Source of the DNA: Escherichia coli
GTDB taxonomy: Bacteria; Pseudomonadota; Gammaproteobacteria; Enterobacterales; Enterobacteriaceae
Strand: one strand, 5' to 3'
Length of the DNA: 64,000 nucleotides
NCBI RefSeq assembly: GCF_044324785.1
Contig: NZ_CP172127.1
This document shows, piece by piece, positions 796 through 40,206 of this stretch. The number at the start of each line of letters is the position of its first letter. Position 1 is the stretch's first letter. The position numbers were made by a program, and so were the translations under genes. The notes beneath the pieces are model-generated. The model did no database searches. It was not told where the DNA came from and saw only the letters and a list, made by a program, of their open reading frames with translations.

Positions 796-1572
796 ATGCT
801 GATTCTTATTTCACCTGCAAAAACGCTCGATTACCAAAGCCCATTGCCCACCACGCGCTATACGCTGCCGGAGCTGTTAGACAATTCCCAGCAGTTGATC
901 CATGAAGCGCGGAAACTGACGCCTCCGCAGATTAGCACGCTGATGCGCATCAGCGACAAACTGGCGGGTATCAACGCCGCTCGCTTTCATGACTGGCAGC
1001 CAGATTTCACGCCGGAGAATGCCCGCCAGGCGATTCTGGCATTTAAAGGTGATGTCTACACCGGCTTGCAGGCCGAAACCTTCAGCGAAGACGATTTCGA
1101 TTTTGCCCAACAGCATTTGCGAATGCTTTCCGGCTTGTATGGCGTACTCCGCCCGCTCGATTTAATGCAGCCTTATCGTCTGGAAATGGGGATCCGTCTT
1201 GAGAATGCCCGAGGGAAAGATCTGTATCAATTCTGGGGAGATATCATCACCAACAAGCTGAACGAGGCGCTCGCAGCACAAGGCGATAATGTGGTGATTA
1301 ATCTGGCGTCAGATGAGTATTTTAAATCGGTGAAGCCGAAGAAATTGAATGCCGAGATTATCAAGCCGGTGTTCCTCGATGAGAAGAACGGCAAATTTAA
1401 GATCATCAGCTTCTACGCTAAGAAAGCACGCGGTCTGATGAGTCGTTTCATTATTGAAAATCGGCTGACCAAACCAGAGCAACTGACTGGTTTTAATAGC
1501 GAAGGTTACTTCTTTGATGAAGCTTCCTCCAGCAATGGCGAACTGGTGTTTAAACGCTACGAGCAGCGTTAA
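796..1572 (+). CDS. yaaA: Peroxide stress protein YaaA (UPF0246/DUF328)
   Basis: ORF track 258 aa, [13 protein letters not shown]...; same length and context as K-12 yaaA. Confidence 0.95.
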
Positions 1573-1583
1573 GTTTGTAGTCA

Positions 1584-1605
1584 ATGCCGGATGGCAATCC
1601 GGCAT
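1584..1605. terminator. Inverted repeat between convergent yaaA and yaaX (atgccgga-N6-tccggcat); possible bidirectional terminator
   Basis: 8-bp perfect inverted repeat read directly; no strong T-tract, so weak call. Confidence 0.4.
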
Positions 1606-1611
1606 TGATAT

Positions 1612-1908
1612 TTAGCGATGATGTTTGTCAGGCCCCGGACGATGATCGCCACGATGATCATTGTGCTTGTTATGGCGCGGCGATGGCGGCGGTCCATATG
1701 GGTGCCAGCGATTGCCTCGCCATTCATAATGTTGTTTCCACCAGCCGTGGTCGCGCCAGTGACCGCCATCCCAGTAATAGCCACGATTATCACGATCGCC
1801 TATCTGTAATTTTACTGAAGGGACTAACGTAATTTCCGCAGCCTGCGCTGCCATGGGAGCGACCAGAACCAGGGAAAGTGCGAGTACGATAGATTGCATC
1901 TTTTTCAC
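1612..1908 (-). CDS. yaaX: DUF2502 secreted His/Trp/Gly-rich protein YaaX
   Basis: ORF track 98 aa with signal peptide [23 protein letters not shown]; adjacent to thrC as in K-12. Confidence 0.85.
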
Positions 1909-2062
1909 AGGTTACTCCTTTTATCATTGCCCGTTATGGGTCGATATCCGGAGATTACGCGATGAGAACGGCGGTTGTTATTCTCCGCAATCCTAATCTC
2001 TAAGTTACCGCATTTATTGAGAATTTCTTCTTTTTCCCTGTCGTTTCTCTCCATATTTTCTT

Positions 2063-2099
2063 CACAAAAAAGCCGGGCTGCATAAAAGCAAACCCGGCC
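2063..2099 (-). terminator. thr operon terminator (hairpin gccggg-N15-cccggc followed by U-tract on the minus-strand transcript)
   Basis: Inverted repeat 2072-2098 with A-run 2065-2070 on the plus strand (= U-run after the hairpin for the minus transcript), 23 nt after the thrC stop. Confidence 0.7.
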
Positions 2100-2121
2100 T
2101 GATTGAGATAATGAATAGATA

Positions 2122-3408
2122 TTACTGATGATTCATCATCAATTTACGCAACGCAGCAAAATCGGCGGGCAGATTATGCGAAAGCAAGGGTAAATCGGCA
2201 CGTTCTGCCAGCTCTTTTGGCAGATCCAACGTTTCACCGAGAATCGCTTCCACGCTCTCTTTAAATTTCGCCGGATGCGCGGTGCCGAGGAACAAGCCAT
2301 ATTCGCCTGGATTCAACTGGTCACGCAGCGCACGATAAGCTACGGCAGCGTGCGGCTCCGAGGTGTAGCCCAGTTCTTTTAACTCACGCATTGTCTGTTG
2401 CGTGGTTTCATCATCCACGGCTGCATAACCCAGCTCTTTCAGTTGCCAGATTTTGCGGCGGAACAACTCTTCCACACGCGGCCAGTTGTTCGGCTGACTC
2501 ACGTCCATCGCGTTGGATAACGTCGCCTGAGTCGCTTTGGGGGACCACTGACCGTCGTGCAGGAAACGTGGCACGGTATCGTTCACGTTGGTCGCAGCAA
2601 TAAAACGTTTCACCGGCAAACCGAGTGACTTCGCCAGCAGACCCGCCGTCAAATCGCCGAAGTTTCCGCTTGGCACCGAGACAACCAGCTGGTTGCGCGC
2701 TTCCTGCGGCAGCTGCGCAACAGCTTCAAAGTAGTAGCAAATCTGCGCCAGCAAACGGCTGATGTTAATCGAGTTAGCCGAGTTTAACCCCAGCGCCACT
2801 TTCAGCTCTTCATCATCAAACGCCTGCTTCACCAGCGCCTGACAGGCATCGAAATCGCCGTCGATGGCAACAGTTTCAATATTGCCGCCCAATGTACAGA
2901 ACAGTTTTTCTTGCAGTGGACTGATTTTGCCTCGTGGATAGAGGATAACCACTTTCACATTCGGCAAACCGTAGAAAGCATGAGCCACTGCCGCTCCGGT
3001 ATCACCGGAGGTCGCGGTCAGAATGGTCACTGGCTTATCGCCCGCAATATGGGTCAGCATTTGTGCCATAAAGCGACCGCCGAAATCTTTAAATGCCAGC
3101 GTTGGCCCGTGGAACAATTCCAGACAACCGACATCGCTTTCAACATTGGCGACCGGAGCCGGGAAGGCAAACGCCGCGCGTACGCGCTCTTCCAGGATTT
3201 CCTGCGGGATTTCATCACCAATAAACGCCGAGAGGATCTTCGCACTGCGGGTGACAAAATCCAGCTTCAGCATCTCATCAATTTCAGTCAGGCTGAATTC
3301 CGGCAGGTCGTGCGGAAAAAACAGCCCCTGATTTTTGCCCAACCCCTGGGTTACGGCTTGCGCAAAGCTGACCTGCTCATTGTGATCTTTCAGATTGTAG
3401 AGTTTCAT
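2122..3408 (-). CDS. thrC: Threonine synthase
   Basis: ORF track 428 aa, MKLYNLKDHNEQVSFAQAVTQGLGK... Confidence 0.97.
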   Translation of the reverse strand: MKLYNLKDHNEQVSFAQAVTQGLGKNQGLFFPHDLPEFSLTEIDEMLKLDFVTRSAKILSAFIGDEIPQEILEERVRAAFAFPAPVANVESDVGCLELFHGPTLAFKDFGGRFMAQMLTHIAGDKPVTILTATSGDTGAAVAHAFYGLPNVKVVILYPRGKISPLQEKLFCTLGGNIETVAIDGDFDACQALVKQAFDDEELKVALGLNSANSINISRLLAQICYYFEAVAQLPQEARNQLVVSVPSGNFGDLTAGLLAKSLGLPVKRFIAATNVNDTVPRFLHDGQWSPKATQATLSNAMDVSQPNNWPRVEELFRRKIWQLKELGYAAVDDETTQQTMRELKELGYTSEPHAAVAYRALRDQLNPGEYGLFLGTAHPAKFKESVEAILGETLDLPKELAERADLPLLSHNLPADFAALRKLMMNHQ

Positions 3409-4341
3409 TTAGTTTTCCAGTACTCGTGCGCCCGCCGTATCCAGCCGGCAAATATGAACAAAACCTTCCTGATTTTGCAGGTAGTTATTACCCAACCAGT
3501 CGGCAACGCGCTGGGCGGTATCCGGCTTGTCACACAGAGCGAACAAGGTCGGGCCGGAGCCGGAGATACCGCTCGCTACCGCGCCGATTTCCGCGACCGC
3601 CTGCCGCGCCTGCCGGAAACCAGGCAGTAACCGTTCACGGTAGGGTTCAGCGATAACATCTTTCATCAGCTTCGCGGCAAGCTCAGGCTGACGGGAATAG
3701 CAGGCGTGAATGAAGCCTGCCAGATGTCGCCCGTGCGCAATGCAATCCTGGCGGCGATACTGCGCCGGTAAAATAGCCCTGGCTTCTGCCGTCGAGACTT
3801 TAATCCCCGGATACGCCAGCACCCACAGCCACTCATCAAACCCTGGCACTTGCTGGCTGATGATGTCGTTTTCTTCGATCATCAACTGCATACCACCAAG
3901 AAAACACGGTGCCACGTTGTCGTAATGAATGCTGCCGGAGATACGCCCTTCCAGCTCGCCCATCAAAGCCAGCAAACGGGTGTCATTAAGCGGCTTGCCG
4001 CAGTGTTCATTCATCGCCATCAGCGCCGCGACCACTGAGCAGGCGCTGGAGCCTAAGCCCGAGCCGATTGGCATATTCTTTTCCAGAGTCATCGCCACTG
4101 GAATTTGCTTACCCAGCTCCTGGCAAAAACGCTCCCAGCACTGATAAACGATATTTTCCCGAGGTTCTGACGGCAGCTTATCGGCAAAGCGTCCGAGGTT
4201 ATTGAGACTGAATGTCTCTGCCGCCTCAACCGTGACTACATCTCCGAGCAATGCACCATCAACGGGTGTCACCGCCGCCCCGAGCACATCAAACCCGACG
4301 CTCATATTGGCACTGGAAGCCGGGGCATAAACTTTAACCAT
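3409..4341 (-). CDS. thrB: Homoserine kinase
   Basis: ORF track 310 aa, [24 protein letters not shown]... Confidence 0.97.
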
Positions 4342-4342
4342 G

Positions 4343-6805
4343 TCAGACTCCTAACTTCCATGAGAGGGTACGTAGCAGATCGGCAAAGACACCGGCAGCT
4401 GTAACGTCATTGCCCGCACCATATCCGCGCAGCACCAACGGCAGCGGCTGATAATAGTGGCTATAGAAGGCCAGGGCGTTTTCGCCGTTTTTCACTTTGA
4501 ACAGCGGATCATTACCATCCACTTCGGCAATCTTCACGCGACAGACGCCATCTTCATCAATATTGCCAACATAGCGCAAAACTTTTCCTTCATCACGGGC
4601 CTTCGCCACGCGAGCGGCAAAGCGATCGTCGAGCTGTGACAGATTCGCCATAAAAGCGGCAACATCACCCTCGGCGTTAAACTCTGCGGGCAGCACAGGT
4701 TCAATTTCAATATCCGCCAGCTCCAGTTCACGTCCCGTTTCACGAGCGAGAATCAATAGTTTACGCGCCACATCCATACCAGAAAGATCATCTCGCGGGT
4801 CCGGTTCGGTATAACCCATTTCCCGCGCCAGCGTGGTCGCCTCGGAGAAACTCATGCCTTCGTCTAACTTGCCGAAGATATAAGAAAGCGAACCAGAAAG
4901 AATGCCGGAGAACTTCATCAATTCATCACCTGCATTGAGCAGATTTTGCAGGTTCTCAATAACCGGTAATCCAGCCCCAACGTTGGTGTCATAGAGGAAT
5001 TTACGCCGCGATTTTTCCGCCGCATGACGCAACAGATGGTAGTAATCCATCGACGAGGTGTTAGCCTTTTTGTTCGGCGTAACAACGTGGAAACCCTCGC
5101 GCAGGAAGTCGGCATATTGATCCGCCACTGCCTGGCTGGAGGTGCAGTCAACAATGACCGGGTTCAGCAGATGATATTCTTTCACGAGGCGAATTAAGCG
5201 CCCGAGATTAAACGGCTCTTTGGCTTGCGCCAGTTCTTCCTGCCAGTTTTCCAGATTAAGGCCATGTACATTGGTGAGCAGAGCCTTCGAGTTGGCAACA
5301 CCGCAGACACGTAAGTCGATATGTTTATTCTTCAGCCAGCTTTGCTGACGCTTCAGTTGCTCCAGCAGCGCACCGCCAACGCCACCGACGCCAATCACAA
5401 ACACTTCGATAACCTGATCGGTATTGAACAGCATCTGATGAGTAACGCGCACGCCAGTGGTCGCATCATCGTTATTTACCACGACAGAGATTGAGCGTTC
5501 AGAAGATCCCTGAGCAATGGCGACAATGTTGATATTGGCGCGGGCCAGCGCGGCAAAGAATTTCGCCGAGATCCCACGCAAGGTGCGCATACCATCACCT
5601 ACCACCGAGATAATGGCCAGCCGTTCCGTCACCGCCAGCGGCTCCAGTAAGCCTTCTTTCAGTTCCAGGTAGAACTCTTCCTGCATTGCCCGTTCAGCTC
5701 GCACACAGTCGCTTTGTGGAACGCAGAAACTGATACTGTATTCGGAAGATGATTGCGTAATCAGCACCACGGAAATACGGGCGCGTGACATCGCTGCAAA
5801 GACGCGCGCCGCCATGCCGACCATTCCTTTCATCCCCGGACCAGAAACGCTGAACATTGCCATGTTATTCAGATTGGAAATGCCCTTGACCGGTAATTCG
5901 TCTTCATCACGGCTGGCACCAATGAGCGTACCTGGTGCTTGAGGATTTCCGGTATTTTTAATCAGGCAAGGGATCTGGAACTGGGCGATGGGGGTAATTG
6001 TGCGGGGGTGAAGAACTTTAGCGCCGAAGTAGGAAAGCTCCATCGCTTCCTGGTAGGACATCGACTTCAACAACCTCGCATCGGGCACCTGACGCGGGTC
6101 GCAGGTATAGACCCCGTCAACGTCCGTCCAAATCTCGCAACAATCGGCGCGTAAACAGGCAGCCAGCACCGCAGCAGAGTAGTCGGAACCGTTGCGTCCA
6201 AGCACCACCAGTTCGCCTTTTTCATTACCGGCGGTGAAACCTGCCATCAGCACCATGTGATCAGCCGGAATACGACTTGCCGCAATACGGCGGGTGGACT
6301 CAGCAATATCGACGGTAGATTCGAGGTAATGCCCCACTGCCAGCAGTTTTTCGACCGGATCGATAACGGTAACGTTGTGACCGCGCGCTTCTAATACGCC
6401 GGCCATAATGGCGATCGACATTTTCTCGCCACGGCAAATCAGCGCAGCGTTGATGCTATCCGGGCACTGCCCCAACAAACTAATGCCATGCAGGACATGT
6501 TTTATTTGGGCAAATTCCTGGTCGACGAAAGTTTTCAGTTGCGCCAGCGGGAATCCCGGCTGAGCGGCGGCGAGTCCCGTCAGAAGTTCGGCAAAAATAC
6601 GTTCGGCATCGCTGATATTGGGTAAAGCATCCTGGCCGCTAATGGTTTTTTCAATCATCGCCACCAGGTGGTTGGTGATTTTGGCGGGGGCAGAGAGGAC
6701 GGTGGCCACCTGCCCCTGCCTGGCATTGCTTTCCAGAATATCGGCAACCCGCAGAAAACGTTCTGCATTTGCCACTGATGTACCGCCGAACTTCAACACT
6801 CGCAT
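4343..6805 (-). CDS. thrA: Bifunctional aspartokinase I / homoserine dehydrogenase I
   Basis: ORF track 4343..6847; start set at the internal [17 protein letters not shown] (820 aa) as in K-12. Confidence 0.96.
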
Positions 6806-6830
6806 GGTTGTTACCTCGTTACCTTTGGTC

Positions 6831-6862
6831 GAAAAAAAAGCCCGCACTGTCAGGTGCGGGCT
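6831..6862 (-). terminator. thr attenuator (rho-independent terminator of the leader transcript)
   Basis: Minus-strand transcript reads AGCCCGCACCUGACAGUGCGGGC followed by a U8 run, directly downstream of thrL. Confidence 0.9.
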
Positions 6863-6885
6863 TTTTTCTGTGTTTCCTGTACGCG

Positions 6886-6954
<69 letters not shown>

Positions 6955-7001
6955 TGTTGTGTACTCTGTAATTTTTATCTGTCTGTGCGCTATGCCTATA
7001 T

Positions 7002-7030
7002 TGGTTAAAGTATTTAGTGACCTAAGTCAA
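7002..7030 (-). promoter_or_regulatory. thr operon promoter (-35 TTGACT, 17-bp spacer, -10 TAACCA on the minus strand)
   Basis: Hexamers read from the sequence at 7025-7030 and 7002-7007 (reverse complement); matches the known thr promoter region. Confidence 0.65.
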
Positions 7031-7164
7031 TAAAATTTTAATTTACTCACGGCAGGTAACCAGTTCAGAAGCTGCTATCAGACACTCTTTTTTTAATCCA
7101 CACAGAGACATATTGCCCGTTGCAGTCAGAATGAAAAGCTGAAAAATACTTACTAAGGCGTTTT

Positions 7165-7851
7165 TTATTTGGTGATATTTTTTTCAATATCATGCAGCAA
7201 ACGGTGCAACATTGCCGTGTCTCGTTGCTCTAAAAGCCCCAGGCGTTGTTGTAACCAGTCGACCAGTTTTATGTCATCTGCCACTGCCAGAGTCGTCAGC
7301 AGTGCCATGGCTCGTTCGCGTAAAGCTTGCAGTTGATGTTTGTCTGCCGTTGTGTCACTTTTCGCCGGTTGTTGTATTAATGTTGCTAATTGATAGCAAT
7401 AGACCATCACCGCCTGCCCAAGATTGAGCGAAGGATAATCCGCCACCATCGGCACACCAGTAAGAACGTCAGCCAACGCTAACTCTTCGTTAGTCAGCCC
7501 GGAATCTTCGCGACCAAACACCAGCGCGGCATGGCTCATCCATGAAGATTTTTCCTCTAACAGCGGCACCAGTTCTACTGGCGTAGCGTAGTAATGATAT
7601 TTCGCCCGACTGCGCGCAGTGGTGGCGACAGTGAAATCGACATCGTGTAACGATTCAGCCAGTGTCGGGAAAACTTTAATATTATCAATAATATCACCAG
7701 ATCCATGTGCGACCCAGCGGGTGGCTGGCTCCAGGTGCGCCTGACTATCGACAATCCGCAGTTTGCTAAACCCCATCGTTTTCATTGCCCGCGCCGCTGC
7801 CCCAATATTTTCTGCTCTGGCGGGTGCGACCAGAATAATCGTTATACGCAT
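7165..7851 (-). CDS. lasT: SpoU/TrmH-family tRNA/rRNA methyltransferase LasT
   Basis: ORF track 7165..7872; start set at MRITIILVAPARAENIGAAARAMK (228 aa). Confidence 0.9.
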   Translation of the reverse strand: MRITIILVAPARAENIGAAARAMKTMGFSKLRIVDSQAHLEPATRWVAHGSGDIIDNIKVFPTLAESLHDVDFTVATTARSRAKYHYYATPVELVPLLEEKSSWMSHAALVFGREDSGLTNEELALADVLTGVPMVADYPSLNLGQAVMVYCYQLATLIQQPAKSDTTADKHQLQALRERAMALLTTLAVADDIKLVDWLQQRLGLLEQRDTAMLHRLLHDIEKNITK

Positions 7852-8250
7852 ATTGCCACTCTTCTTGATCAAATAACCGCGAACCGGGTGATCACTGTCA
7901 ACTTATTACGCGGTGCGAATTTACAAATTCTTAACGTAAGTCGCAGAAAAAGCCCTTTACTTAGCTTAAAAAAGGCTAAACTATTTCCTGACTGTACTAA
8001 CGGTTGAATTGTTAAAAAATGCTACATATCCTTCTGTTTACTTAGGATAATTTTATAAAAAATAAATCTCGACAATTGGATTCACCACGTTTATTAGTTG
8101 TATGATGCAACTAGTTGGATTATTAAAATAATGTGACGAAAGCTAGCATTTAGATACGATGATTTCATCAAACTGTTAACGTGCTACAATTGAACTTGAT
8201 ATATGTCAACGAAGCGTAGTTTTATTGGGTGTCCGGCCCCTCTTAGCCTG

Positions 8251-8391
8251 TTATGTTGCTGTTAAAATGGTTAGGATGACAGCCGTTTTTGACACTGTCG
8301 GGTCCTGAGGGAAAGTACCCACGACCAAGCTAATGATGTTGTTGACGTTGATGGAAAGTGCATCAAGAACGCAATTACGTACTTTAGTCAT
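8251..8391 (-). CDS. yjjY: Small protein YjjY (46 aa)
   Basis: Reverse-complement translation MTKVRNCVLDALSINVNNIISLVVGTFPQDPTVSKTAVILTILTAT*; below the ORF-track size cut-off. Confidence 0.7.
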   Translation of the reverse strand: MTKVRNCVLDALSINVNNIISLVVGTFPQDPTVSKTAVILTILTAT

Positions 8392-8486
8392 GTTACGCCG
8401 ATCATGTTAATTTGCAGCATGCATCAGGCAGGTCAGGGACTTTTGTACTTCCTGTTTCGATTTAGTTGGCAATTTAGGTAGCAAAC

Positions 8487-9203
8487 ATGCAGACCCCGCA
8501 CATTCTTATCGTTGAAGACGAGTTGGTAACACGCAACACGTTGAAAAGTATTTTCGAAGCGGAAGGCTATGATGTTTTCGAAGCGACAGATGGCGCGGAA
8601 ATGCATCAGATCCTCTCTGAATATGACATCAACCTGGTGATCATGGATATCAATCTGCCGGGTAAGAACGGTCTTCTGTTAGCGCGTGAACTGCGCGAGC
8701 AGGCGAATGTTGCGTTGATGTTCCTGACTGGCCGTGACAACGAAGTCGATAAAATTCTCGGCCTCGAAATCGGTGCAGATGACTACATCACCAAACCGTT
8801 CAACCCGCGTGAACTGACTATTCGTGCACGCAACCTGCTGTCCCGTACCATGAATCTGGGGACTGTCAGCGAAGAACGTCGTAGCGTTGAAAGCTACAAG
8901 TTCAATGGTTGGGAACTGGACATCAACAGCCGTTCGTTGATCGGCCCTGATGGCGAGCAGTACAAGCTGCCGCGCAGCGAGTTCCGCGCCATGCTTCACT
9001 TCTGTGAAAACCCAGGCAAAATTCAGTCCCGTGCTGAACTGCTGAAGAAAATGACCGGCCGTGAGCTGAAACCGCACGACCGTACTGTAGACGTGACGAT
9101 CCGCCGTATTCGTAAACATTTCGAATCTACGCCGGATACGCCGGAAATCATCGCCACCATTCACGGTGAAGGTTATCGCTTCTGCGGTGATCTGGAAGAT
9201 TAA
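8487..9203 (+). CDS. arcA: Aerobic respiration control response regulator ArcA
   Basis: ORF track 238 aa, [43 protein letters not shown]... Confidence 0.97.
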
Positions 9204-9220
9204 TCGGCTTTACCACCGTC

Positions 9221-9258
9221 AAAAAAAACGGCGCTTTTTAGCGCCGTTTTTATTTTTC
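9221..9258. terminator. Bidirectional rho-independent terminator between convergent arcA and creD
   Basis: A8 run, stem aacggcgc / gcgccgtt with 6-nt loop, then T-rich run; read directly. Confidence 0.85.
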
Positions 9259-9262
9259 AACC

Positions 9263-10615
9263 TTATTTCCAGATACGTAATTCATCGTCCGTTGTAACTT
9301 CTTTACTGGCTTTCATTTTCGGCAGTGAAAACGCATACCAGTCGATATTACGGGTCACAAACATCATGCCGGCCAGCGCCACCACCAGCACACTGGTTCC
9401 CAACAACAGCGCGCTATCGGCAGAGTTGAGCAGTCCCCACATCACACCATCCAGCAACAACAGCGCGAGGGTAAACAACATGCTATTGCGCCAGCCTTTC
9501 AATACCGCCTGCAAATAAATACCGTTCATTAACGCCCCAATCAGACTGGCGATTATCCATGCCACGGTAAAACCGATATGTTCAGAAAGCGCCAGCAAGA
9601 GCAAATAAAACATCACCAATGAAAGCCCCACCAGCAAATATTGCATTGGGTGTAAACGTTGCGCGGTGAGCGTTTCAAAAACAAAGAACGCCATAAAAGT
9701 CAGTGCAATCAGCAGAATGGCGTACTTAGTCGCCCGGTCAGTTAATTGGTATTGATCGGCTGGCGTCGTCACTGCGACGCTAAACGCCGGGAAGTTTTCC
9801 CAGCCGGTATCATTGCCTGAAGCAAAACGCTCACCGAGATTATTAGCAAACCAGCTGCTTTGCCAGTGCGCCTGAAAACCTGACTCGCTAACTTCCCGTT
9901 TGGCTGGTAGAAAATCACCTAAAAAACTGGGATGCGGCCAGTTGCTGGTTAAGGTCATTTCGCTATTACGCCCGCCAGGCACCACAGAAAGATCGCCGGT
10001 ACCGCTTAAATTCAGGGCCATATTCAGCTTCAGGTTCTGCTTCCGCCAGTCCCCTTCAGGTAAAGGGATATGCACGCCCTGCCCGCCTTGCTCTAACCCG
10101 GTGCCGGGTTCAATGGTCAGCGCCGTTCCGTTAACTTCAGGCGCTTTCACCACACCAATACCACGCGCATCCCCGACGCTAATCACAATAAATGGCTTGC
10201 CTAAGGTGATATTTGGCGCGTTGAGTTCGCTAAGACGCGAAACATCGAAATCGGCTTTTAGCGTTAAATCACTGTGCCAGACCTGACCGGTATAAATCCC
10301 TATCTTGCGTTCTTCCACGTTCTGATTGCCATCAACCATCAATGACTCAGGTAACCAAAAATGGATAAAACTTCGTTTCCGCTCCACGGTTTTATCCTCT
10401 TCCTGCACCGTATAAAGCTCGGTCACAGGAATAGCGATGAGCGGCCCAACGAGTTTTTGCGGCCCGCTGGTACTTTGGCGAATCGCATCTTCCACATCGC
10501 TACGGTAATCAGCACGTTCGACAATCACCTGCCGAATCAGCATTATCGGAATCAACAACAGCAATACTGCACCAAACAGGGTGGTCATTTTCCAGAGCAG
10601 GGGGGATTTCAACAT
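9263..10615 (-). CDS. creD: Inner membrane protein CreD
   Basis: ORF track 450 aa; last gene of the creABCD operon. Confidence 0.93.
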   Translation of the reverse strand: MLKSPLLWKMTTLFGAVLLLLIPIMLIRQVIVERADYRSDVEDAIRQSTSGPQKLVGPLIAIPVTELYTVQEEDKTVERKRSFIHFWLPESLMVDGNQNVEERKIGIYTGQVWHSDLTLKADFDVSRLSELNAPNITLGKPFIVISVGDARGIGVVKAPEVNGTALTIEPGTGLEQGGQGVHIPLPEGDWRKQNLKLNMALNLSGTGDLSVVPGGRNSEMTLTSNWPHPSFLGDFLPAKREVSESGFQAHWQSSWFANNLGERFASGNDTGWENFPAFSVAVTTPADQYQLTDRATKYAILLIALTFMAFFVFETLTAQRLHPMQYLLVGLSLVMFYLLLLALSEHIGFTVAWIIASLIGALMNGIYLQAVLKGWRNSMLFTLALLLLDGVMWGLLNSADSALLLGTSVLVVALAGMMFVTRNIDWYAFSLPKMKASKEVTTDDELRIWK

Positions 10616-10672
10616 AGTCTTCTCCTTTGCAATGGCAGCAGGATACGAAGGCTATGTGGGAAGAATTTGAAG

Positions 10673-12097
10673 CTATGTGAAGTGACGGTGAAGTCGAAGC
10701 GAAGCCAGCACGCCACCTTCCTGCACGTTGCGCAGCGTGACTTCGCCGTTAAACAAACGGGCGACCTCACTGACGAACGCCAACCCCAGACCGCTGCTTT
10801 TTTGCCCATTTGCACGCGGCAAAGAGTAAAAGCGTTCAAAAATACGTGAAAGCGCGTAGTCAGGAATACCACTACCGGTATCCAGCACCTTAAGCGTGAC
10901 GTGTTCCTGATCCACTTCGGCGCTTAGCGTGATGCAACCGCTCTCGGGGGTAAAATCGATGGCGTTATCCAGTAAATTTCCCAGCGCCTGCTCCAGTAAC
11001 GCCGGTTCAGCAGCAACATTAACCTCGGTGGGCGTAACATGCAGAGTGATTTTTTTTTCTGCCAACTGCACGGTGCGCGCTTCGCTGACGCGGCGAAATA
11101 ATGCCGCCACATCAACAGCAGTCAGAACGACTTCCTGACGATTCTCCAGTCTTGCCTGGCGTAGTAACGTTTCTACTAATGCCTGCATACGCGCATTTTG
11201 CGTCAGAATGTTGTCAGTAAAACGAGCCACCACTTCCGGCGGCGGACCTTCGCGTAAAATTTCCGCCGCGCCACGAATCGCCGCCAGTGGGCTTTTTAGC
11301 TCATGGGTTAACGCATAAACATACTGCTCAATATAGTTTTTCCCTTCCAGCTTCACGCGCATACTTTCCAGCGCCTGCGCGAGTTTACGCAGCTCGCTAC
11401 TACCGAGATCGGGGAGAGGAACGGGCTTATTGTCAGTGACGGAATCAGCATAGCGAGTGAGCCGGGCAATGGAGCGGTTGATCCACCAAACCATGCCTGC
11501 GCCAATCACCAGTGCAATCCCCAACAAAATGGCGCTGGCCCATAAAATTCGCCGCTCGCTGCGCTTAATGACCGGAGCCATCGCCGCGTTCGGTTTGCCT
11601 ACGCTCAAAACGCCAATAAGCCGCGAGCCGTCCATAATCGGCGCGGCAACATACATCACCGAACTTTCGGGATCGGCAGGATTTTGCAACGTGCTGCGCG
11701 CACCATACTGACCACGCAACGTTAGCCAGACGTCATTCCAGCGCGAATAATCCTGTCCAACGGCTTTATTTGCCGAATCGAACAATACTTTGCCCTGCGC
11801 ATCGGTCATATAGACATGATATTCATTGCGCACTTTGTTAATGCCACCGATATTGGCGCGAAACGGGCGATGCTGTAGCTGATTAAACGCCTGCGCCAGT
11901 TGCCCATGCGTTGGGTCCCCAGAGAGCAAATCGGGACGCGCCAGCTCCGCCAGCAACGTTGCGGTGTCGATCAACGTCCCCTCCGTTGCTCTTCGCACGC
12001 CCGGTTTAACTTCTTTGACAAAAATAGCCAGTACGAACCAGGCCGCCACCGCCACCAGTAAAAAATAGCCCAGCAGCAACCGCATGCCGATACGCAT
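10673..12097 (-). CDS. creC: Sensor histidine kinase CreC
   Basis: ORF track 474 aa; HAMP and HisKA/HATPase motifs; overlaps the creB stop. Confidence 0.95.
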   Translation of the reverse strand: MRIGMRLLLGYFLLVAVAAWFVLAIFVKEVKPGVRRATEGTLIDTATLLAELARPDLLSGDPTHGQLAQAFNQLQHRPFRANIGGINKVRNEYHVYMTDAQGKVLFDSANKAVGQDYSRWNDVWLTLRGQYGARSTLQNPADPESSVMYVAAPIMDGSRLIGVLSVGKPNAAMAPVIKRSERRILWASAILLGIALVIGAGMVWWINRSIARLTRYADSVTDNKPVPLPDLGSSELRKLAQALESMRVKLEGKNYIEQYVYALTHELKSPLAAIRGAAEILREGPPPEVVARFTDNILTQNARMQALVETLLRQARLENRQEVVLTAVDVAALFRRVSEARTVQLAEKKITLHVTPTEVNVAAEPALLEQALGNLLDNAIDFTPESGCITLSAEVDQEHVTLKVLDTGSGIPDYALSRIFERFYSLPRANGQKSSGLGLAFVSEVARLFNGEVTLRNVQEGGVLASLRLHRHFT

Positions 12098-12786
12098 TAC
12101 AGGCCCCTCAGGCTATATCCCATGCCGCGATGAGTATTAATCGGTGAAAGATCGGGGTTGATGGCGCGCAACTTGGCACGCAGCGTTTTAATGTGGGTAT
12201 CGACGGTGCGATCGTAGGTGTCCTGCGCATCTTCCCACACGCTATCCATCAGTTGCTGGCGGGACCAGACGCGGCCTGGCGACTTGAGTAACGTCTTCAG
12301 CAATAAAAACTCATACCGCGTCAGCGCTAATGGCGTGTCAAACCAGCAGATCTGCGCCGCGGGTTCATTCAATTCAAAATGTCCAATACGGATGACGGGA
12401 GACGGCATCGAGAATTTCTTCACCCGACGCAGTAAGGTGCGCACCCTGGCGCACACTTCGCGAGGTGAAAACGGTTTAGCCACGTAGTCGTCAGCGCCAA
12501 TTTCCAGCCCAAGCAGGCGATCGACCTCTTCACTTCGGGCCGTCAGGAACAGTACAGGTAACGCCGGATGGAGCACCAGTAACTGGCGGCACAATTCAAA
12601 GCCGCTAATATCCGGCAGACCAACATCGAGAATCATGACGTCGGGTACCTGCTGGCGAGCTTTATCCAGCACCGGCAAGCCTCGCTCAAAGACCTCGACG
12701 GCAAAACCTTCCTGCTGCAACATGTAGACCAGCGTGTCGGCTATCCCTTGCTCATCTTCCACTAACCAGACCGTTTCCCGTTGCAT
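12097..12786 (-). CDS. creB: Response regulator CreB (OmpR family)
   Basis: ORF track 229 aa, MQRETVWLVEDEQGIADTLVYMLQQEGF... Confidence 0.95.
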   Translation of the reverse strand: MQRETVWLVEDEQGIADTLVYMLQQEGFAVEVFERGLPVLDKARQQVPDVMILDVGLPDISGFELCRQLLVLHPALPVLFLTARSEEVDRLLGLEIGADDYVAKPFSPREVCARVRTLLRRVKKFSMPSPVIRIGHFELNEPAAQICWFDTPLALTRYEFLLLKTLLKSPGRVWSRQQLMDSVWEDAQDTYDRTVDTHIKTLRAKLRAINPDLSPINTHRGMGYSLRGL

Positions 12787-35887: not shown

Positions 35888-36667
35888 TTAGTAGCTGCTG
35901 GCGCTCTTACCGTCGCCGTGACCCAGCGCTTTCAGCAGGCTTGCCAGCAGGCTGGAAGCACCAAAGCGGTAGTGACGCGCATCAGCCCAGTCAGCACCGA
36001 ACAGTTCATCTGCGATGGCGAGATATTTCTGCGCATCTTCCGCAGTACGCACGCCGCCCGCCGGTTTGAAACCAACGGTTTTTTCTACGCCCATATCACG
36101 GATCACTTCCATCATGATGCGCGCGCTTTCCGGCGTCGCGTTCACAGCCACTTTACCGGTAGAGGTTTTGATGAAGTCCGCACCCGCTTTGATGGAGATT
36201 TCAGACGCTTTACGGATCAGCGCTTCGTCTTTCAGTTCGCCGGTTTCGATGATCACTTTCAGCAGTACATTCGCTGCCGCGCAAGCCTCTTTACAGGCTT
36301 TCACAAGGTCAAAACCAACCTGCTCGTTACCCGCCATCAGCGCGCGGTACGGGAACACAACGTCAACTTCATCAGCACCGTAGGCGATTGCCGCACGGGT
36401 TTCTGCCAGCGCGATTTCGATGTCGTCGTTACCGTGTGGGAAGTTGGTTACCGTAGCAATACGGATTTCCGGGGTGCCCTGCTCTTTCAGCGTTTTGCGA
36501 GCAATTGGGATAAAGCGAGGATAGATACAGATAGCGGCGGTATTGCCGACCGGGGTTTTGGCCTGATGACACAGAGCAATTACTTTCTCGTCGGTGTCGT
36601 CGTCATTCAGGGTGGTCAGGTCCATCAATTTCAGTGCACGCAGGCTGCTTGCTTTCAGATCAGTCAT
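35888..36667 (-). CDS. deoC: Deoxyribose-phosphate aldolase
   Basis: ORF track 35888..36691; start set at [54 protein letters not shown] (259 aa). Confidence 0.96.
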
Positions 36668-36711
36668 TTCATTCTCCTGGCTTGTCGCCAATAAAATTCA
36701 CCTTGCGAGTT

Positions 36712-36727
36712 TGTTAGTATTCTAACA
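36712..36727 (-). promoter_or_regulatory. DeoR operator O2 at deo promoter P2 (TGTTAGAATACTAACA on the deoC strand)
   Basis: 16-bp near-palindrome 45 nt upstream of the deoC start; matches the known DeoR operator. Confidence 0.8.
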
Positions 36728-36924
36728 TCTACTCCGCAACACACTTCGATATACATCACAATTAAGGAAATCTACTTACAAGTTTGCATCACTGTAATGC
36801 GATCTGGTTCAAATAATTCACTTTCAAATGAATGCGTCAGTGGTGGCAAACGCATCAGGATCAAAGTGAACATCACGAAACTTCTTACAATGGCGCATCA
36901 CCTTCGGCATAAAAGGAAAAGAAG

Positions 36925-38475
36925 ATGCCCACTTCTCATGAAAATGCACTGCAACAACGTTGCCAGCAAATTGTCACCAGCCCAGTGCTTAGCCCGGAGC
37001 AGAAGCGCCATTTTCTGGCACTGGAAGCAGAAAACAATCTGCCTTACCCACAGCTTCCTGCCGAAGCCCGCCGCGCGCTGGATGAAGGTGTAATCTGCGA
37101 TATGTTTGAAGGTCATGCGCCGTACAAACCGCGCTATGTCTTACCCGATTACGCCCGTTTTCTGGCGAACGGTTCCGAATGGCTGGAGCTGGAAGGCGCG
37201 AAAGATCTTGATGACGCCCTCTCTCTGCTGACCATTCTTTACCACCACGTACCGTCGGTCACATCGATGCCGGTCTACCTGGGGCAACTGGATGCGTTGT
37301 TGCAACCGTATGTTAGAATTCTAACACAAGACGAGATCGATGTTCGAATAAAACGTTTCTGGCGTTACCTCGACAGAACCCTGCCAGACGCCTTTATGCA
37401 CGCCAATATCGGCCCGTCTGATTCGCCCATTACCCGCGCGATCTTACGTGCAGACGCAGAGTTGAAGCAGGTTTCACCGAACCTGACCTTTATCTACGAT
37501 CCTGAAATCACCCCTGATGACCTGCTGCTGGAAGTGGCGAAGAACATCTGTGAATGTAGCAAACCGCACATCGCCAACGGTCCGGTGCATGATAAAATTT
37601 TCACAAAAGGGGGCTACGGGATTGTGAGCTGTTACAACTCACTGCCGCTGGCGGGTGGTGGCAGCACGCTGGTACGCCTTAACCTGAAAGCCATTGCCGA
37701 GCGCAGCGAATCGCTGGATGACTTCTTTACGCGCACTCTACCGCACTACTGCCAGCAGCAGATCGCCATCATCGATGCGCGGTGTGAATTCCTCTATCAA
37801 CAATCACACTTCTTTGAGAATAGCTTCCTGGTGAAAGAAGGGCTGATTAACCCTGAACGTTTTGTGCCAATGTTTGGCATGTATGGGCTGGCGGAAGCGG
37901 TTAACTTGCTGTGTGAGAAAGAAGGGATTGCCGCGCGCTACGGTAAAGAAGCCGCCGCAAATGAAGTGGGTTATCGCATCAGCGCGCAACTGGCGGAGTT
38001 TGTCGCCAATACCCCCGTGAAATATGGCTGGCAAAAACGCGCCATGTTACACGCACAGTCGGGGATCAGTTCCGATATCGGCACCACGCCGGGCGCGCGT
38101 TTGCCGTATGGCGATGAGCCAGATCCGATCACCCATCTGCAAACTGTCGCCCCGCATCATGCTTATTATTATTCCGGCATCAGCGACATTCTGACGCTCG
38201 ACGAAACCATCAAACGTAACCCGCAGGCACTGGTACAGCTTTGCCTCGGTGCCTTTAAAGCCGGAATGCGTGAATTTACCGCCAATGTCAGCGGTAACGA
38301 TCTGGTTCGCGTTACCGGTTATATGGTGCGTTTGTCGGATTTAGAAAAATATCGCGCCGAAGGTTCACGCACCAACACCACCTGGCTGGGCGAAGAAGCC
38401 GCACGCAACACTCGTATTCTGGAACGCCAGCCGCGCGTGATAAGCCATGAACAGCAGATGCGCTTTAGTCAGTAA
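36925..38475 (+). CDS. yjjI: YjjI, DUF3029 glycyl-radical-enzyme-like protein
   Basis: ORF track 516 aa, [55 protein letters not shown]...; followed by its activase yjjW. Confidence 0.88.
37311..37326 (-). promoter_or_regulatory. DeoR operator O1 at deo promoter P1 (perfect palindrome TGTTAGAATTCTAACA)
   Basis: Perfect 16-bp palindrome exactly 599 bp from O2, the documented O1-O2 spacing; lies inside the yjjI reading frame. Confidence 0.8.
37590..37605 (-). promoter_or_regulatory. DeoR distal operator OE candidate (TGTGAAAATTTTATCA on the deoC strand)
   Basis: Imperfect palindrome 279 bp beyond O1, matching the reported ~278 bp O1-OE distance. Confidence 0.55.
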
Positions 38476-39310
38476 GATTATCCCCTTCTCCTGCGTTGAC
38501 GGGCCAGGCAGTCGTCTGGCTCTGTTTTTGCAGGGCTGCAATCTGCGCTGCAAAAACTGTCACAATCCGTGGACGATGGGACGTTGCAATGACTGTGGGG
38601 AGTGCGTGCCACAGTGTCCGCATCAGGCGTTGCAGATTGTTGACGGCAAAGTGGTGTGGAACGCTGTGGTCTGCGAGCAATGTGATACCTGCCTGAAGAG
38701 GTGTCCGCAACATGCCACGCCAATGGCGCAATCCATGAGCGTGGATGAGGTGCTTAGCCATATCCGCAAAGCGGTGCTGTTTATTGAAGGGATAACGGTA
38801 AGCGGCGGCGAAGCCACGACCCAACTGCCGTTTGTAGTGGCGCTGTTTACTGCTATCAAAAACGATCCGCAACTGCGCCACCTCACCTGCCTGGTAGACA
38901 GTAACGGTATGTTGAGCGAAACCGGCTGGGAAAAATTGCTCCCGGTGTGCGACGGCGCAATGCTCGATCTCAAAGCGTGGGGGAGCGAATGTCATCAACA
39001 ACTCACCGGACGCGATAATCAGCAGATTAAGCGCAGCATCTGTTTGCTGGCAGAGCGCGGCAAGCTGGCGGAACTGCGTTTGCTGGTAATCCCTGGCCAG
39101 GTGGATTATTTGCAACACATCGAAGAACTGGCGGTGTTTATCAAGGGACTTGGCGATGTTCCGGTACGCCTGAACGCGTTTCATGCCCACGGCGTGTATG
39201 GCGAGGCGCAAAGCTGGGCGAGCGCCACGCCGGAAGACGTTGAGCCGTTGGCTGATGCGTTAAAGGTGCGCGGGGTGAGCCGCTTAATATTCCCGGCGCT
39301 GTATTTGTGA
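38447..39310 (+). CDS. yjjW: Radical SAM glycyl-radical-enzyme activating protein YjjW
   Basis: ORF track 287 aa; cysteine cluster near the N-terminus (CKNCHNPW) plus ferredoxin-like Cys motifs; overlaps the yjjI end by 29 nt. Confidence 0.9.
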
Positions 39311-39312
39311 CA

Positions 39313-39432
39313 TGCCGGATGCGGCCTACAGTTCGGCACAGACTTGTAGGCATGATAAGACGCGTCAAGCGTCGCATCAGGCATTGTGCGCCAACTGCCG
39401 GATGCGGCGTGAACGCCTTATCCGGCCTACGG
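39313..39432. repeat. BIME / REP cluster between yjjW and yjjV
   Basis: Three REP-like palindromes (gccggatgcggcctaca..., tgtaggcatgataagacgcg...gcatcaggcat, tgccggatgcggcgtgaacgccttatccggcctacgg); the last overlaps the yjjV stop. Confidence 0.75.
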
Positions 39433-40206
39433 CACGTTAAACAACGTATACGTGTTATTAAGCAACACTTCGGCAATTTCATCTGCGGGTTCCAGGCGTA
39501 ACTCACAAAGCACAGCAAACACCCGCGCGGCCTGTTCCGGGCGGTTAGGCTGCCCCTGAAAACCGTTGAGCGGCATATCCGGCGCGTCGGTTTCCAGCAA
39601 CAACGATGCCAGCGGTAATTTTGCGATGACATCGCGGGTTTTACTGGCGCGTGGATAGGTGATAGTACCGCCTACGCCGATTTTGTAGCCCAGCTGTACA
39701 AACCGCTCGGCCTGTTGGAGGCTGCCGGAAAAACCGTGAACCACGCCAGTGCGCGATAAATCGTGGCGTTTAAGATGCATCGCCAGTTTGTCGTGCGTGC
39801 GTCGTGAATGCAGGATCACCGGCAGATCGTAGCGTTTCGCCAGTTTCAGTTGTTCGTCGAGTAACCACTGCTGCCTCTCAAATTGCGGATCGTCGCCGAA
39901 GAGATCCAGACCGATCTCCCCCACCGCCACCACCTTCGCCGGACGCCTTTCCAGCGCCTGCTGTAGCTGATCAAGAGACACATCGCTATGTTTTTCCAAC
40001 ATACCAGGATGCAAGCCCAATGCGGCATACAGCGGTTGATATTTTTCCGCTAATGCCAACACACGGGCAAAATTTGCCGCCTCGGTTGCCGGAACAATGA
40101 TCTTGCCTACGCCCGCTTGTGCCGCGCGTTGCAGGCTGGCCTCTTCATCACCACTAAAAGGCGGGAAATCAAAATGGCAGTGGGTGTCGATAAAACGGCA
40201 AATCAA
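39427..40206 (-). CDS. yjjV: TatD-family metal-dependent hydrolase YjjV
   Basis: ORF track 259 aa, MICRFIDTHCHFDFPPF... Confidence 0.92.
   Translation of the reverse strand: MICRFIDTHCHFDFPPFSGDEEASLQRAAQAGVGKIIVPATEAANFARVLALAEKYQPLYAALGLHPGMLEKHSDVSLDQLQQALERRPAKVVAVGEIGLDLFGDDPQFERQQWLLDEQLKLAKRYDLPVILHSRRTHDKLAMHLKRHDLSRTGVVHGFSGSLQQAERFVQLGYKIGVGGTITYPRASKTRDVIAKLPLASLLLETDAPDMPLNGFQGQPNRPEQAARVFAVLCELRLEPADEIAEVLLNNTYTLFNVP

Follow-up and report, generated by a model that had tools for sequence, protein, structure and literature searches.

A minimal protein of the glycyl radical enzyme superfamily and its radical SAM activase, encoded by the conserved yjjI-yjjW pair of Escherichia coli

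The closest described relatives of the system analysed here are the class III ribonucleotide reductase (RNR) NrdD, which is activated by NrdG; pyruvate formate-lyase (PFL; PflB), with its activase PflA; and the 1,2-eliminases and dehydratases of the superfamily of glycyl radical enzymes (GREs), that is, glycerol dehydratase, CutC, IslA, HypD, PflD, and YbiW. In the eliminases the loop that carries the catalytic cysteine is of the GCVE type, with a glutamate general base two residues after the cysteine, and in PFL residue R435 is one of two arginines that bind the carboxylate. Here we analyse yjjI and yjjW, two genes at positions 36925-39310 of a 64,000-nucleotide stretch of Escherichia coli DNA (contig NZ_CP172127.1; the whole stretch is referred to as 'the window'), for which a first-pass annotation, made from the sequence, had proposed a glycyl-radical-enzyme-like protein and its radical S-adenosylmethionine (SAM) activase. 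Family profiles, catalytic loops, and the predicted barrel fold all agree with that proposal. The pair and its family assignment are, however, curated knowledge already and not a discovery: the locus is a well-known orphan. It is the name-giving member of TIGR04040, TIGR04041, and PF11230, from which it shows no difference, and these are families without an attached reaction (TIGR04040 and TIGR04041 are NCBIfam 'hypothetical equivalogs', a class of model that carries none). A literature search by gene name, family identifier, and locus tag (b4380, HI0521, and STM4565) returned no paper that assigns YjjI a reaction, describes its structure, or reports a phenotype of its mutants. In a 2025 study, the list of E. 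coli GREs contains NrdD, TdcE, YbiW, and PflD and does not name YjjI, and PDB entries of 2024 carry the name 'probable dehydratase' for both PflD and YbiW, with a sugar phosphate bound in the case of PflD. Among the GREs of E. coli, YjjI thus seems to be the last without an assigned reaction.

The coding sequences, their overlap, and the catalytic and cluster-binding motifs are as follows (positions are those of the window).

36925 to 38475, plus strand: yjjI coding sequence, 516 amino acids, ATG start, encoding the YjjI-family GRE; from the open reading frame (ORF), TIGR04040, PF11230, and the model fold.
38447 to 39310, plus strand: yjjW coding sequence, 287 amino acids, ATG start, encoding the radical SAM activase of YjjI; from the ORF and TIGR04041.
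38447 to 38475, plus strand: overlap of the yjjI 3' end with the yjjW 5' end, 29 nt, out of frame; candidate translational coupling.
37627 to 37638, plus strand: Cys finger loop S235-C236-Y237-N238, with C236 as the proposed thiyl-radical cysteine; from conservation, a hairpin tip in the model, and alignment with PFL.
38308 to 38322, plus strand: glycyl radical loop R462-V-T-G465-Y466; from conservation, a hairpin tip in the model, and alignment with I-R-V-S-G734-Y of PFL.
38537 to 38560, plus strand: radical-SAM [4Fe-4S]/SAM cluster motif C31-x3-C35-x2-C38 of YjjW; from the translation and the Radical_SAM and Fer4_12 Pfam matches.
38585 to 38704, plus strand: ferredoxin-like insert of YjjW with two Cx2Cx2Cx3C motifs (C47-C57 and C76-C86); from the translation and matches to Fer4_9, Fer4_7, and Fer4.

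YjjI matches TIGR04040 (YjjI family glycine radical enzyme) at 787 bits against a cut-off of 498, over model positions 1-497 of 497, and matches Pfam PF11230 ('Glycyl radical enzyme YjjI-like') at 732 bits. YjjW matches TIGR04041 (YjjW family glycine radical enzyme activase) at 396 bits against a cut-off of 250, and its next-best hidden Markov models (HMMs), at 100-140 bits, are those for the activases of hydroxyproline dehydratase (HypD), PFL, sulfopropanediol dehydratase, CutC, and others. The K-12 counterparts, b4380 (yjjI) and b4379 (yjjW), have the same lengths. Of 5,426 complete E. coli genomes, 5,422 carry the 3-kb region that holds the pair (window 36500-39500) at 95-99% identity, and the labels assigned by the NCBI annotation pipeline (PGAP) to this region are yjjI and yjjW, with deoC and yjjV flanking. 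The earlier description of a conserved pair without an assigned reaction thus holds on both counts, and the ORF coordinates reproduce the two protein lengths and the 29-nt overlap given with it. That the ORFs or their overlap are annotation artefacts is excluded by this conservation, together with HMM coverage that starts at YjjW residue 5. Across species, 1.84 billion cluster representatives, searched exhaustively with HMMER, contain 541 relatives at E ≤ 0.001, of which some 20 are both full-length and diverse, and a scan of one genome per species detects a relative in at least 593 genomes; these include gut enterics, bee symbionts, marine Vibrio, Shewanella, and Rhodobacteraceae.

One point on which the first-pass annotation had set the assignment at risk was whether YjjI has a conserved glycyl radical loop and an active-site cysteine; the other, an already established function, is not borne out by the literature search given above. 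The loop and the cysteine are both present, both are invariant, and both align to their counterparts in PFL (G734 and C419). In an alignment of 22 sequences with 33-90% identity, including one archaeal-contig member and one Actinomycetota member, R462 and G465 (within VRVTGY) and S235, C236, and N238 (within VSCYN) are invariant, Y466 is at least 90% conserved, and Y237 is nearly invariant. C236 is the sole invariant cysteine of the family, and E62, R70, Y71, D150, F157, H159, N186, R251, E305, H376, Q378, D384, and R392 are invariant as well. A single-sequence search with YjjI against all PDB chains returned nothing meaningful (best E 0.9). The family profile does reach NrdD, weakly, and it reaches E. 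coli PFL at E 0.003, with YGIVSCYN aligned to YAIAC418C419VS and VRVTGY aligned to IRVSG734Y, and hhalign against PflB (probability 73%, E 3e-5) pairs S235 with C418, C236 with C419, G465 with G734, R251 with R435, and F157 with W333. In an AlphaFold2 model built on an 80-sequence alignment (predicted local distance difference test score, pLDDT, 93; predicted template-modelling score, pTM, 0.92), C236 and G465 each occupy a hairpin tip (hairpins 231-234/238-241 and 460-462/467-469, respectively), the placement of residues being taken from the DSSP string and the profile alignments. The two finger loops are thereby predicted to oppose one another in the arrangement typical of GREs. Comparison of the model with the PDB by Foldseek returns class III RNRs on top (E 1e-17, TM score 0.65-0.77), followed by PFL-type enzymes, and identifies the fold as a glycyl-radical-enzyme barrel. 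With both catalytic loops in place on the right fold, YjjI does not lack the features whose absence would have told against the assignment.

YjjW shares with PflA the DGPG motif, the CX3CX2C motif, and the GGE SAM motif. Unlike PflA, YjjW has two extra [4Fe-4S] motifs, C47-x2-C50-x2-C53-x3-C57 and C76-x2-C79-x2-C82-x3-C86, with Fer4 matches at residues 42-94, in line with the extra ferredoxin-like cysteine clusters reported at first pass. NrdD is activated by NrdG, whereas YjjW belongs to the PFL-activase type and carries a ferredoxin insert with two clusters: it scores 122-140 bits on models for activases of the PFL and HypD type and 49-63 bits on NrdG models (cut-offs 126-131). The activases of the archaeal and actinobacterial members are 247-250 amino acids long and have no ferredoxin insert, and the insert is therefore not universal in the family.

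The two genes travel together. We called and clustered ORFs around yjjI in a set of loci consisting of the best 80 of the at least 593 genomes, drawn from Enterobacterales, Orbaceae, Vibrionaceae, Shewanella, Rhodobacteraceae/Hyphomicrobiales, and uncultured Gammaproteobacteria. The activase gene is 3' of yjjI in 71 of 78 loci and in every taxonomic group, and clustering of the neighbourhoods of the 80 species loci reveals no third conserved neighbour. Contigs from archaea, Actinobacteria, and Ferrimonas contain the two-gene cassette only. Lineage-specific neighbours were considered and found unconvincing: a methyl-accepting chemotaxis protein in Vibrio, ExaC in Shewanella, and, in a few Alphaproteobacteria, a histidine kinase, a dimethylglycine-dehydrogenase-like protein, and a choline ATP-binding-cassette (ABC) permease. 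The geometry of the junction is likewise conserved. In 56 of 69 loci (57 of 70 with the window), the activase DGPG motif lies 22 or 25 nt past the yjjI stop codon, with an in-frame ATG at -29 or -26; this geometry is observed in 26 of 26 Enterobacteriaceae, 3 of 3 Hafniaceae, 4 of 4 Morganellaceae, 8 of 8 Orbaceae, 4 of 4 gammaproteobacterial metagenome-assembled genomes (MAGs), and 12 of 13 Alphaproteobacteria, and in the overlap survey the two genes are separated only in Vibrionaceae and Shewanella. The overlap had been taken at first pass to suggest translational coupling; its conservation from Gamma- to Alphaproteobacteria supports coupling without proving it, and coupling is plausible.

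Two observations on distant members may be added. Archaeal metagenome contigs (L002 and L003, 8001-10364) carry a YjjI-like gene with eIF-1A, eIF-5, NMD3, and RIO1 as neighbours, and YjjI-like genes of Actinomycetota occur in Ilumatobacteraceae (L088-L090).

Published expression data bear on when the pair is made. By chromatin immunoprecipitation (ChIP) and expression analysis, yjjI has been classed as directly bound and activated by FNR, with the entry 'TSS not known' for its transcription start site (Myers et al. 2013, PMC3688515), and both yjjI and yjjW are in a published list of FNR-activated genes. Anaerobic induction is 4.3-fold in Yersinia intermedia, narG and further genes of respiration are co-expressed with yjjI, and expression of yjjI is reduced in a ygfI mutant along with that of adhE, hyb, and ynf. 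We conclude that yjjI-yjjW is, with high likelihood, a self-contained two-gene GRE system made under anoxia.

According to this reading, YjjW would use one SAM-binding and two auxiliary [4Fe-4S] clusters for reductive cleavage of S-adenosylmethionine, and the 5'-deoxyadenosyl radical so formed would remove a hydrogen from YjjI residue G465, on which a stable glycyl radical would remain. At every turnover, this radical would be handed on to C236 on the opposing finger loop, the resulting thiyl radical would draw a hydrogen atom from a small molecule bound in the barrel as substrate, the substrate radical would rearrange, and the product radical would regain the hydrogen. Gene structure, family membership, motif conservation, fold, and synteny come from the computations made here, and FNR binding and anaerobic induction come from the work of others; we infer that a radical forms, what C236 and G465 do, and which reaction class and substrate are involved.

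YjjI fits no characterised GRE class. At 516 amino acids, it looks like a minimal version of the GRE/RNR barrel and a third lineage of it, about as distant from the RNR branch as from the PFL branch. Because the family has a single conserved cysteine, the reaction is probably non-reductive, that is, an elimination or a bond cleavage, and not ribonucleotide reduction or PFL-type acyl transfer. Because R251 occupies the position of PFL R435, and because R70, R392, H159, and H376 are invariant, the substrate is probably anionic, either a phosphate ester or a carboxylate.

The location of the pair offers a further indication of substrate. In the window, the ORF list has deoC, deoA, and deoB on the minus strand, divergent from yjjI-yjjW, a placement read at first pass as a possible hint of an anaerobic nucleoside- or sugar-related function. 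We searched within 10 kb of yjjI, using DeoA, DeoB, DeoC, and DeoD of the window as probes, and detected deo genes in 27 of 32 Enterobacteriaceae, 3 of 3 Hafniaceae, 7 of 8 Orbaceae, and one gammaproteobacterial MAG. In Enterobacteriaceae and Hafniaceae, a divergent deoC lies beside yjjI. In Gilliamella (L041-L048, ~1000-12400 in the coordinates of the loci), yjjI and yjjW are the last of ten co-directional genes, deoB-deoD-nupG-add-cpdB-cdd-deoA-ushA-yjjI-yjjW, with gaps of 26-313 nt; this block includes a NupG-type nucleoside permease, an adenosine deaminase, and a cytidine deaminase, and deoC lies outside it. The two differing architectures by which the pair is tied to nucleoside catabolism are suggestive. 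The proposed hint is borne out as adjacency in three related families; as an argument for function it is weak, it does not extend to other groups, and it had been published, YjjI having been placed in a context module for deoxyribonucleoside degradation (Hu et al. 2009, PMC2672614). Our leading guess for the substrate, a weak guess and one that we consider unlikely to be right, is a pentose phosphate derived from a nucleoside, or some related deo-pathway metabolite. The fuller proposal, in which YjjI represents a third functional GRE lineage with a new reaction, namely, non-reductive dehydration or C-C or C-O cleavage of a nucleoside-derived pentose phosphate, we regard as improbable.

The alternative that survives best makes YjjI a radical 1,2-eliminase or dehydratase that forms an aldehyde, comparable to glycerol dehydratase, CutC, IslA, PflD, and YbiW, and that acts on a non-nucleoside substrate, for example a marine or gut osmolyte, under induction by a LysR-type regulator. 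A LysR-type regulator gene recurs beside yjjW in Vibrionaceae, in Shewanella, in a gammaproteobacterial MAG, and at one further locus (L086), and hints at substrate-inducible catabolism; an ExaC-type acetaldehyde dehydrogenase gene lies upstream in two Shewanella species. The ExaC link is, however, a loose one (two related species, with a gap of ~197 nt and a promoter-like signal of its own). Where the eliminases and dehydratases (HypD included) have G-C-V-E, YjjI has S-C236-Y-N238, with an invariant Asn at Cys+2, so that the Cys-x-Glu general base is replaced by Cys-Tyr-Asn. The eliminases and dehydratases are, moreover, 250-330 residues longer than YjjI, and neighbourhood clustering of YjjI loci detects no conserved microcompartment, no conserved transporter, and no conserved aldehyde-processing genes downstream or elsewhere. 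We regard this alternative as a tenable minority view.

A second alternative is that YjjI is a PFL-like 2-keto-acid formate-lyase, or another carboxylate C-C lyase of anaerobic central metabolism. The Cys loop, the Gly loop, and R251 align to PFL (in the family profile, C419, G734, R435, and W333 of PflB align with C236, G465, R251, and F157); PflB is FNR-activated, and yjjI is classed as FNR-activated in published data and is co-expressed with fermentation and respiration genes; the cassette stands alone, lacking both transporter and pathway partner, which would fit a reaction between common metabolites; and the Haemophilus influenzae orthologue was formerly annotated as a pflB homologue. PFL chemistry, however, requires the C418-C419 pair, and YjjI has no Cys-Cys pair, the essential C418 being replaced by the invariant S235. 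YjjI is also ~240 residues shorter than PFL, aligns only from PFL residue 247 onward, and has marginal overall similarity (E 0.003). These differences make a PFL-like lyase very doubtful.

E. coli nrdD mutants are not known to grow under strict anaerobiosis, and YjjI therefore would not substitute for NrdD. The remaining alternative, that YjjI is a divergent minimal class III RNR or a related ribosyl reductase with deoxyribosyl products that feed or draw on the deo pathway, can claim NrdD as the top structural match by both methods and the best match by hhalign as well (89%, E 2e-6), a weak Pfam NRDD match (PF13597; 11.1 bits, below the cut-off of 26.2, E 0.15), the adjoining nucleoside-catabolism genes in three families, and an earlier NrdD-like structure prediction (PMC3228777), but is most improbable, given that sequence identity to NrdD is ~14-17%, that the second catalytic cysteine of NrdD (C175 in E. 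coli, C79 in T4; first barrel strand) falls in a gap between R70-Y71 and P74 of YjjI, with C236 the only invariant cysteine, that the YjjI sequence has neither an ATP-cone or allosteric region nor a C-terminal CxxC...CxxC zinc ribbon (residues 400-516 contain no CxxC pair), and that YjjW resembles PFL-type activases with ferredoxin inserts (134-140 bits) and not NrdG (49-63). Apart from C175, the hhalign mapping of NrdD active-site residues was dropped: it is misregistered at the Cys loop, with C384 in a YjjI gap ~8 residues off.

Several points weigh against the reading of yjjI-yjjW as a two-gene GRE system with a nucleoside-linked substrate. The searchable literature yielded no report of a glycyl radical observed on YjjI, nor of a mutant phenotype. 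The S-C-Y-N Cys loop matches no characterised reaction class, and the reaction class is argued by exclusion. The likeness to characterised GREs is marginal (E 0.003 for PFL; hhalign 73% and 89%), and residue equivalences beyond the Gly and Cys loops are therefore tentative; a pocket-lining role for the invariant residues is suggested solely by strand positions and alignment. Finally, deo genes are absent within 10 kb of yjjI in 31 loci (Morganellaceae 0/4, Vibrionaceae 0/9, Shewanella 0/2, and Alphaproteobacteria 0/16), and the deo linkage may be synteny inherited within related orders. Because the three families with the link are related, and because the link is missing elsewhere, it constitutes weak evidence for a nucleoside substrate.

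The region around the deo and yjjI promoters contains the following elements, two of them inside yjjI.

36712 to 36727, no strand assigned: DeoR operator O2 at deoP2, TGTTAGTATTCTAACA, one mismatch; conserved in enteric loci.
36745 to 36760, no strand assigned: CRP site 1 of deoP2, TTCGATATACATCACA; conserved in the footprint alignment.
36851 to 36866, plus strand: proposed FNR site of the yjjI promoter, CGCATcaggATCAA plus AG; half-site match only.
36886 to 36891, plus strand: predicted -10 hexamer TACAAT of the yjjI promoter; T, A, A, and T invariant in 11 genera.
36914 to 36917, plus strand: Shine-Dalgarno core AGGA of yjjI, 7 nt 5' of the ATG; invariant.
37311 to 37326, no strand assigned: DeoR operator O1 at deoP1, a perfect 16-bp palindrome, TGTTAGAATTCTAACA, inside yjjI; encodes V-R-I-L-T, residues 130-134.
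37590 to 37605, no strand assigned: candidate distal DeoR operator O_E, TGATAAAATTTTCACA, a degenerate palindrome with four mismatches, inside yjjI.

The DeoR palindrome is found twice in the window, against a chance expectation of 0.15. Candidate O_E lies 279 bp from O1 and 878 bp from O2, and 279 bp beyond O1 fits the position reported for O_E; at this offset, one genus carries a version with three mismatches. The O1-O2 spacing is exactly 599 bp, as is the published deoP1-deoP2 distance (PMC3334521). All 31 Enterobacteriaceae loci and all 3 Hafniaceae loci have O1, with at most one mismatch and at one and the same codon position, and O1 is absent in every lineage in which deoC is not the divergent neighbour. 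We conclude that the O1 sequence doubles as protein code and operator, and that the DeoR O1-O2 loop encloses the yjjI promoter. Since deoP1 and O1 lie within yjjI, transcripts from deoP1 run antisense to yjjI over its first ~390 nt and over its promoter.

A footprint alignment of 11 enterobacterial genera shows conservation of the deoP2 elements (O2, CRP site 1, and a CytR-like block), and shows an invariant block, GGATCAAAG, at 36858-36866. As judged from this conservation, yjjI is predicted to have its own conserved promoter, with an FNR-type half-site. The first-pass annotation had the pair sharing the control region of the deo operon; this wording is imprecise, inasmuch as yjjI has a promoter of its own, and deoP1, O1, and candidate O_E are inside the yjjI coding sequence. 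The centre of the proposed FNR site, at ~36857.5, is ~41 bp 5' of the predicted start, and only its ATCAA half, which is invariant, fits the consensus; placement at -41 would be a class II FNR arrangement. The published FNR peak, after coordinate conversion, is ~93 bp 5' of the ATG, ~25 bp off the proposed site, and full FNR boxes upstream of yjjI show no enrichment across lineages relative to 303 control intergenic regions. For CRP, the ChIP motif published for yjjI/deoC in enterotoxigenic E. coli (ETEC) is TGTGATGTATATCGAA (PMC4287617), of which TTCGATATACATCACA is the reverse complement. In ETEC H10407 there is an additional CRP ChIP-seq peak within yjjI, with motif CGTACCGTCGGTCACA (PMC4287617).

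Other observations concern the surroundings of the pair and the provenance of the window. An exact sigma-54 binding motif, CTGGCTCTGTTTTTGCA, is present at 38516-38532 (plus strand), in yjjW codons 24-29, and sigma-54 ChIP has identified a strong, intragenic, sense-oriented site, IS57, within yjjW (Bonocora et al. 2015, PMC4591121). A generic scan for promoters and terminators was uninformative (one promoter-like site against 2.1 expected), and one 'terminator' that it returned is the published sigma-54 site in yjjW. The yjjW-yjjV intergenic region (39311-39426) holds an element of the repetitive extragenic palindrome/bacterial interspersed mosaic element (REP/BIME) type, with a match to Rfam naRNA4 (RF02564) at 39349-39427 (minus strand; 76.6 bits). 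This region is 116 bp in the window vs. 419 bp in K-12, and the element accounts for the tens of extra places per genome returned by megablast. Identity of at least 99% to 36500-39500 is found in just 72 of 5,463 E. coli records, the bulk being at 95-99% and the closest being strain N3; with so few near-identical matches, the window is from a less commonly sequenced E. coli lineage. A 574-amino-acid NCBI protein on a 2.9-kb contig joins PF11230 (100% identical to YjjI over 91%) to a DeoC-type aldolase domain (PF01791); because yjjI and deoC are divergent neighbours, this fusion is probably an assembly or gene-call artefact.

The observation from which this work started restates curated annotation and does not alone make the enzymology question more tractable. 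What is added here is a set of constraints on the enzyme (one Cys, no Glu, an Arg at the position of PFL R435, and a minimal NrdD-like core), together with the Gilliamella nucleoside block and the operator-in-gene geometry. If the proposed link to nucleosides is true, YjjI and YjjW would provide facultative anaerobes with an oxygen-independent branch of deo nucleoside catabolism, and in enterics the expression of the two systems would be tied together through deoP1 and the DeoR operators embedded in yjjI. The GRE superfamily has repeatedly yielded important anaerobic metabolism of the gut and the sea, and the reaction of YjjI would give it new chemistry or a new substrate class.

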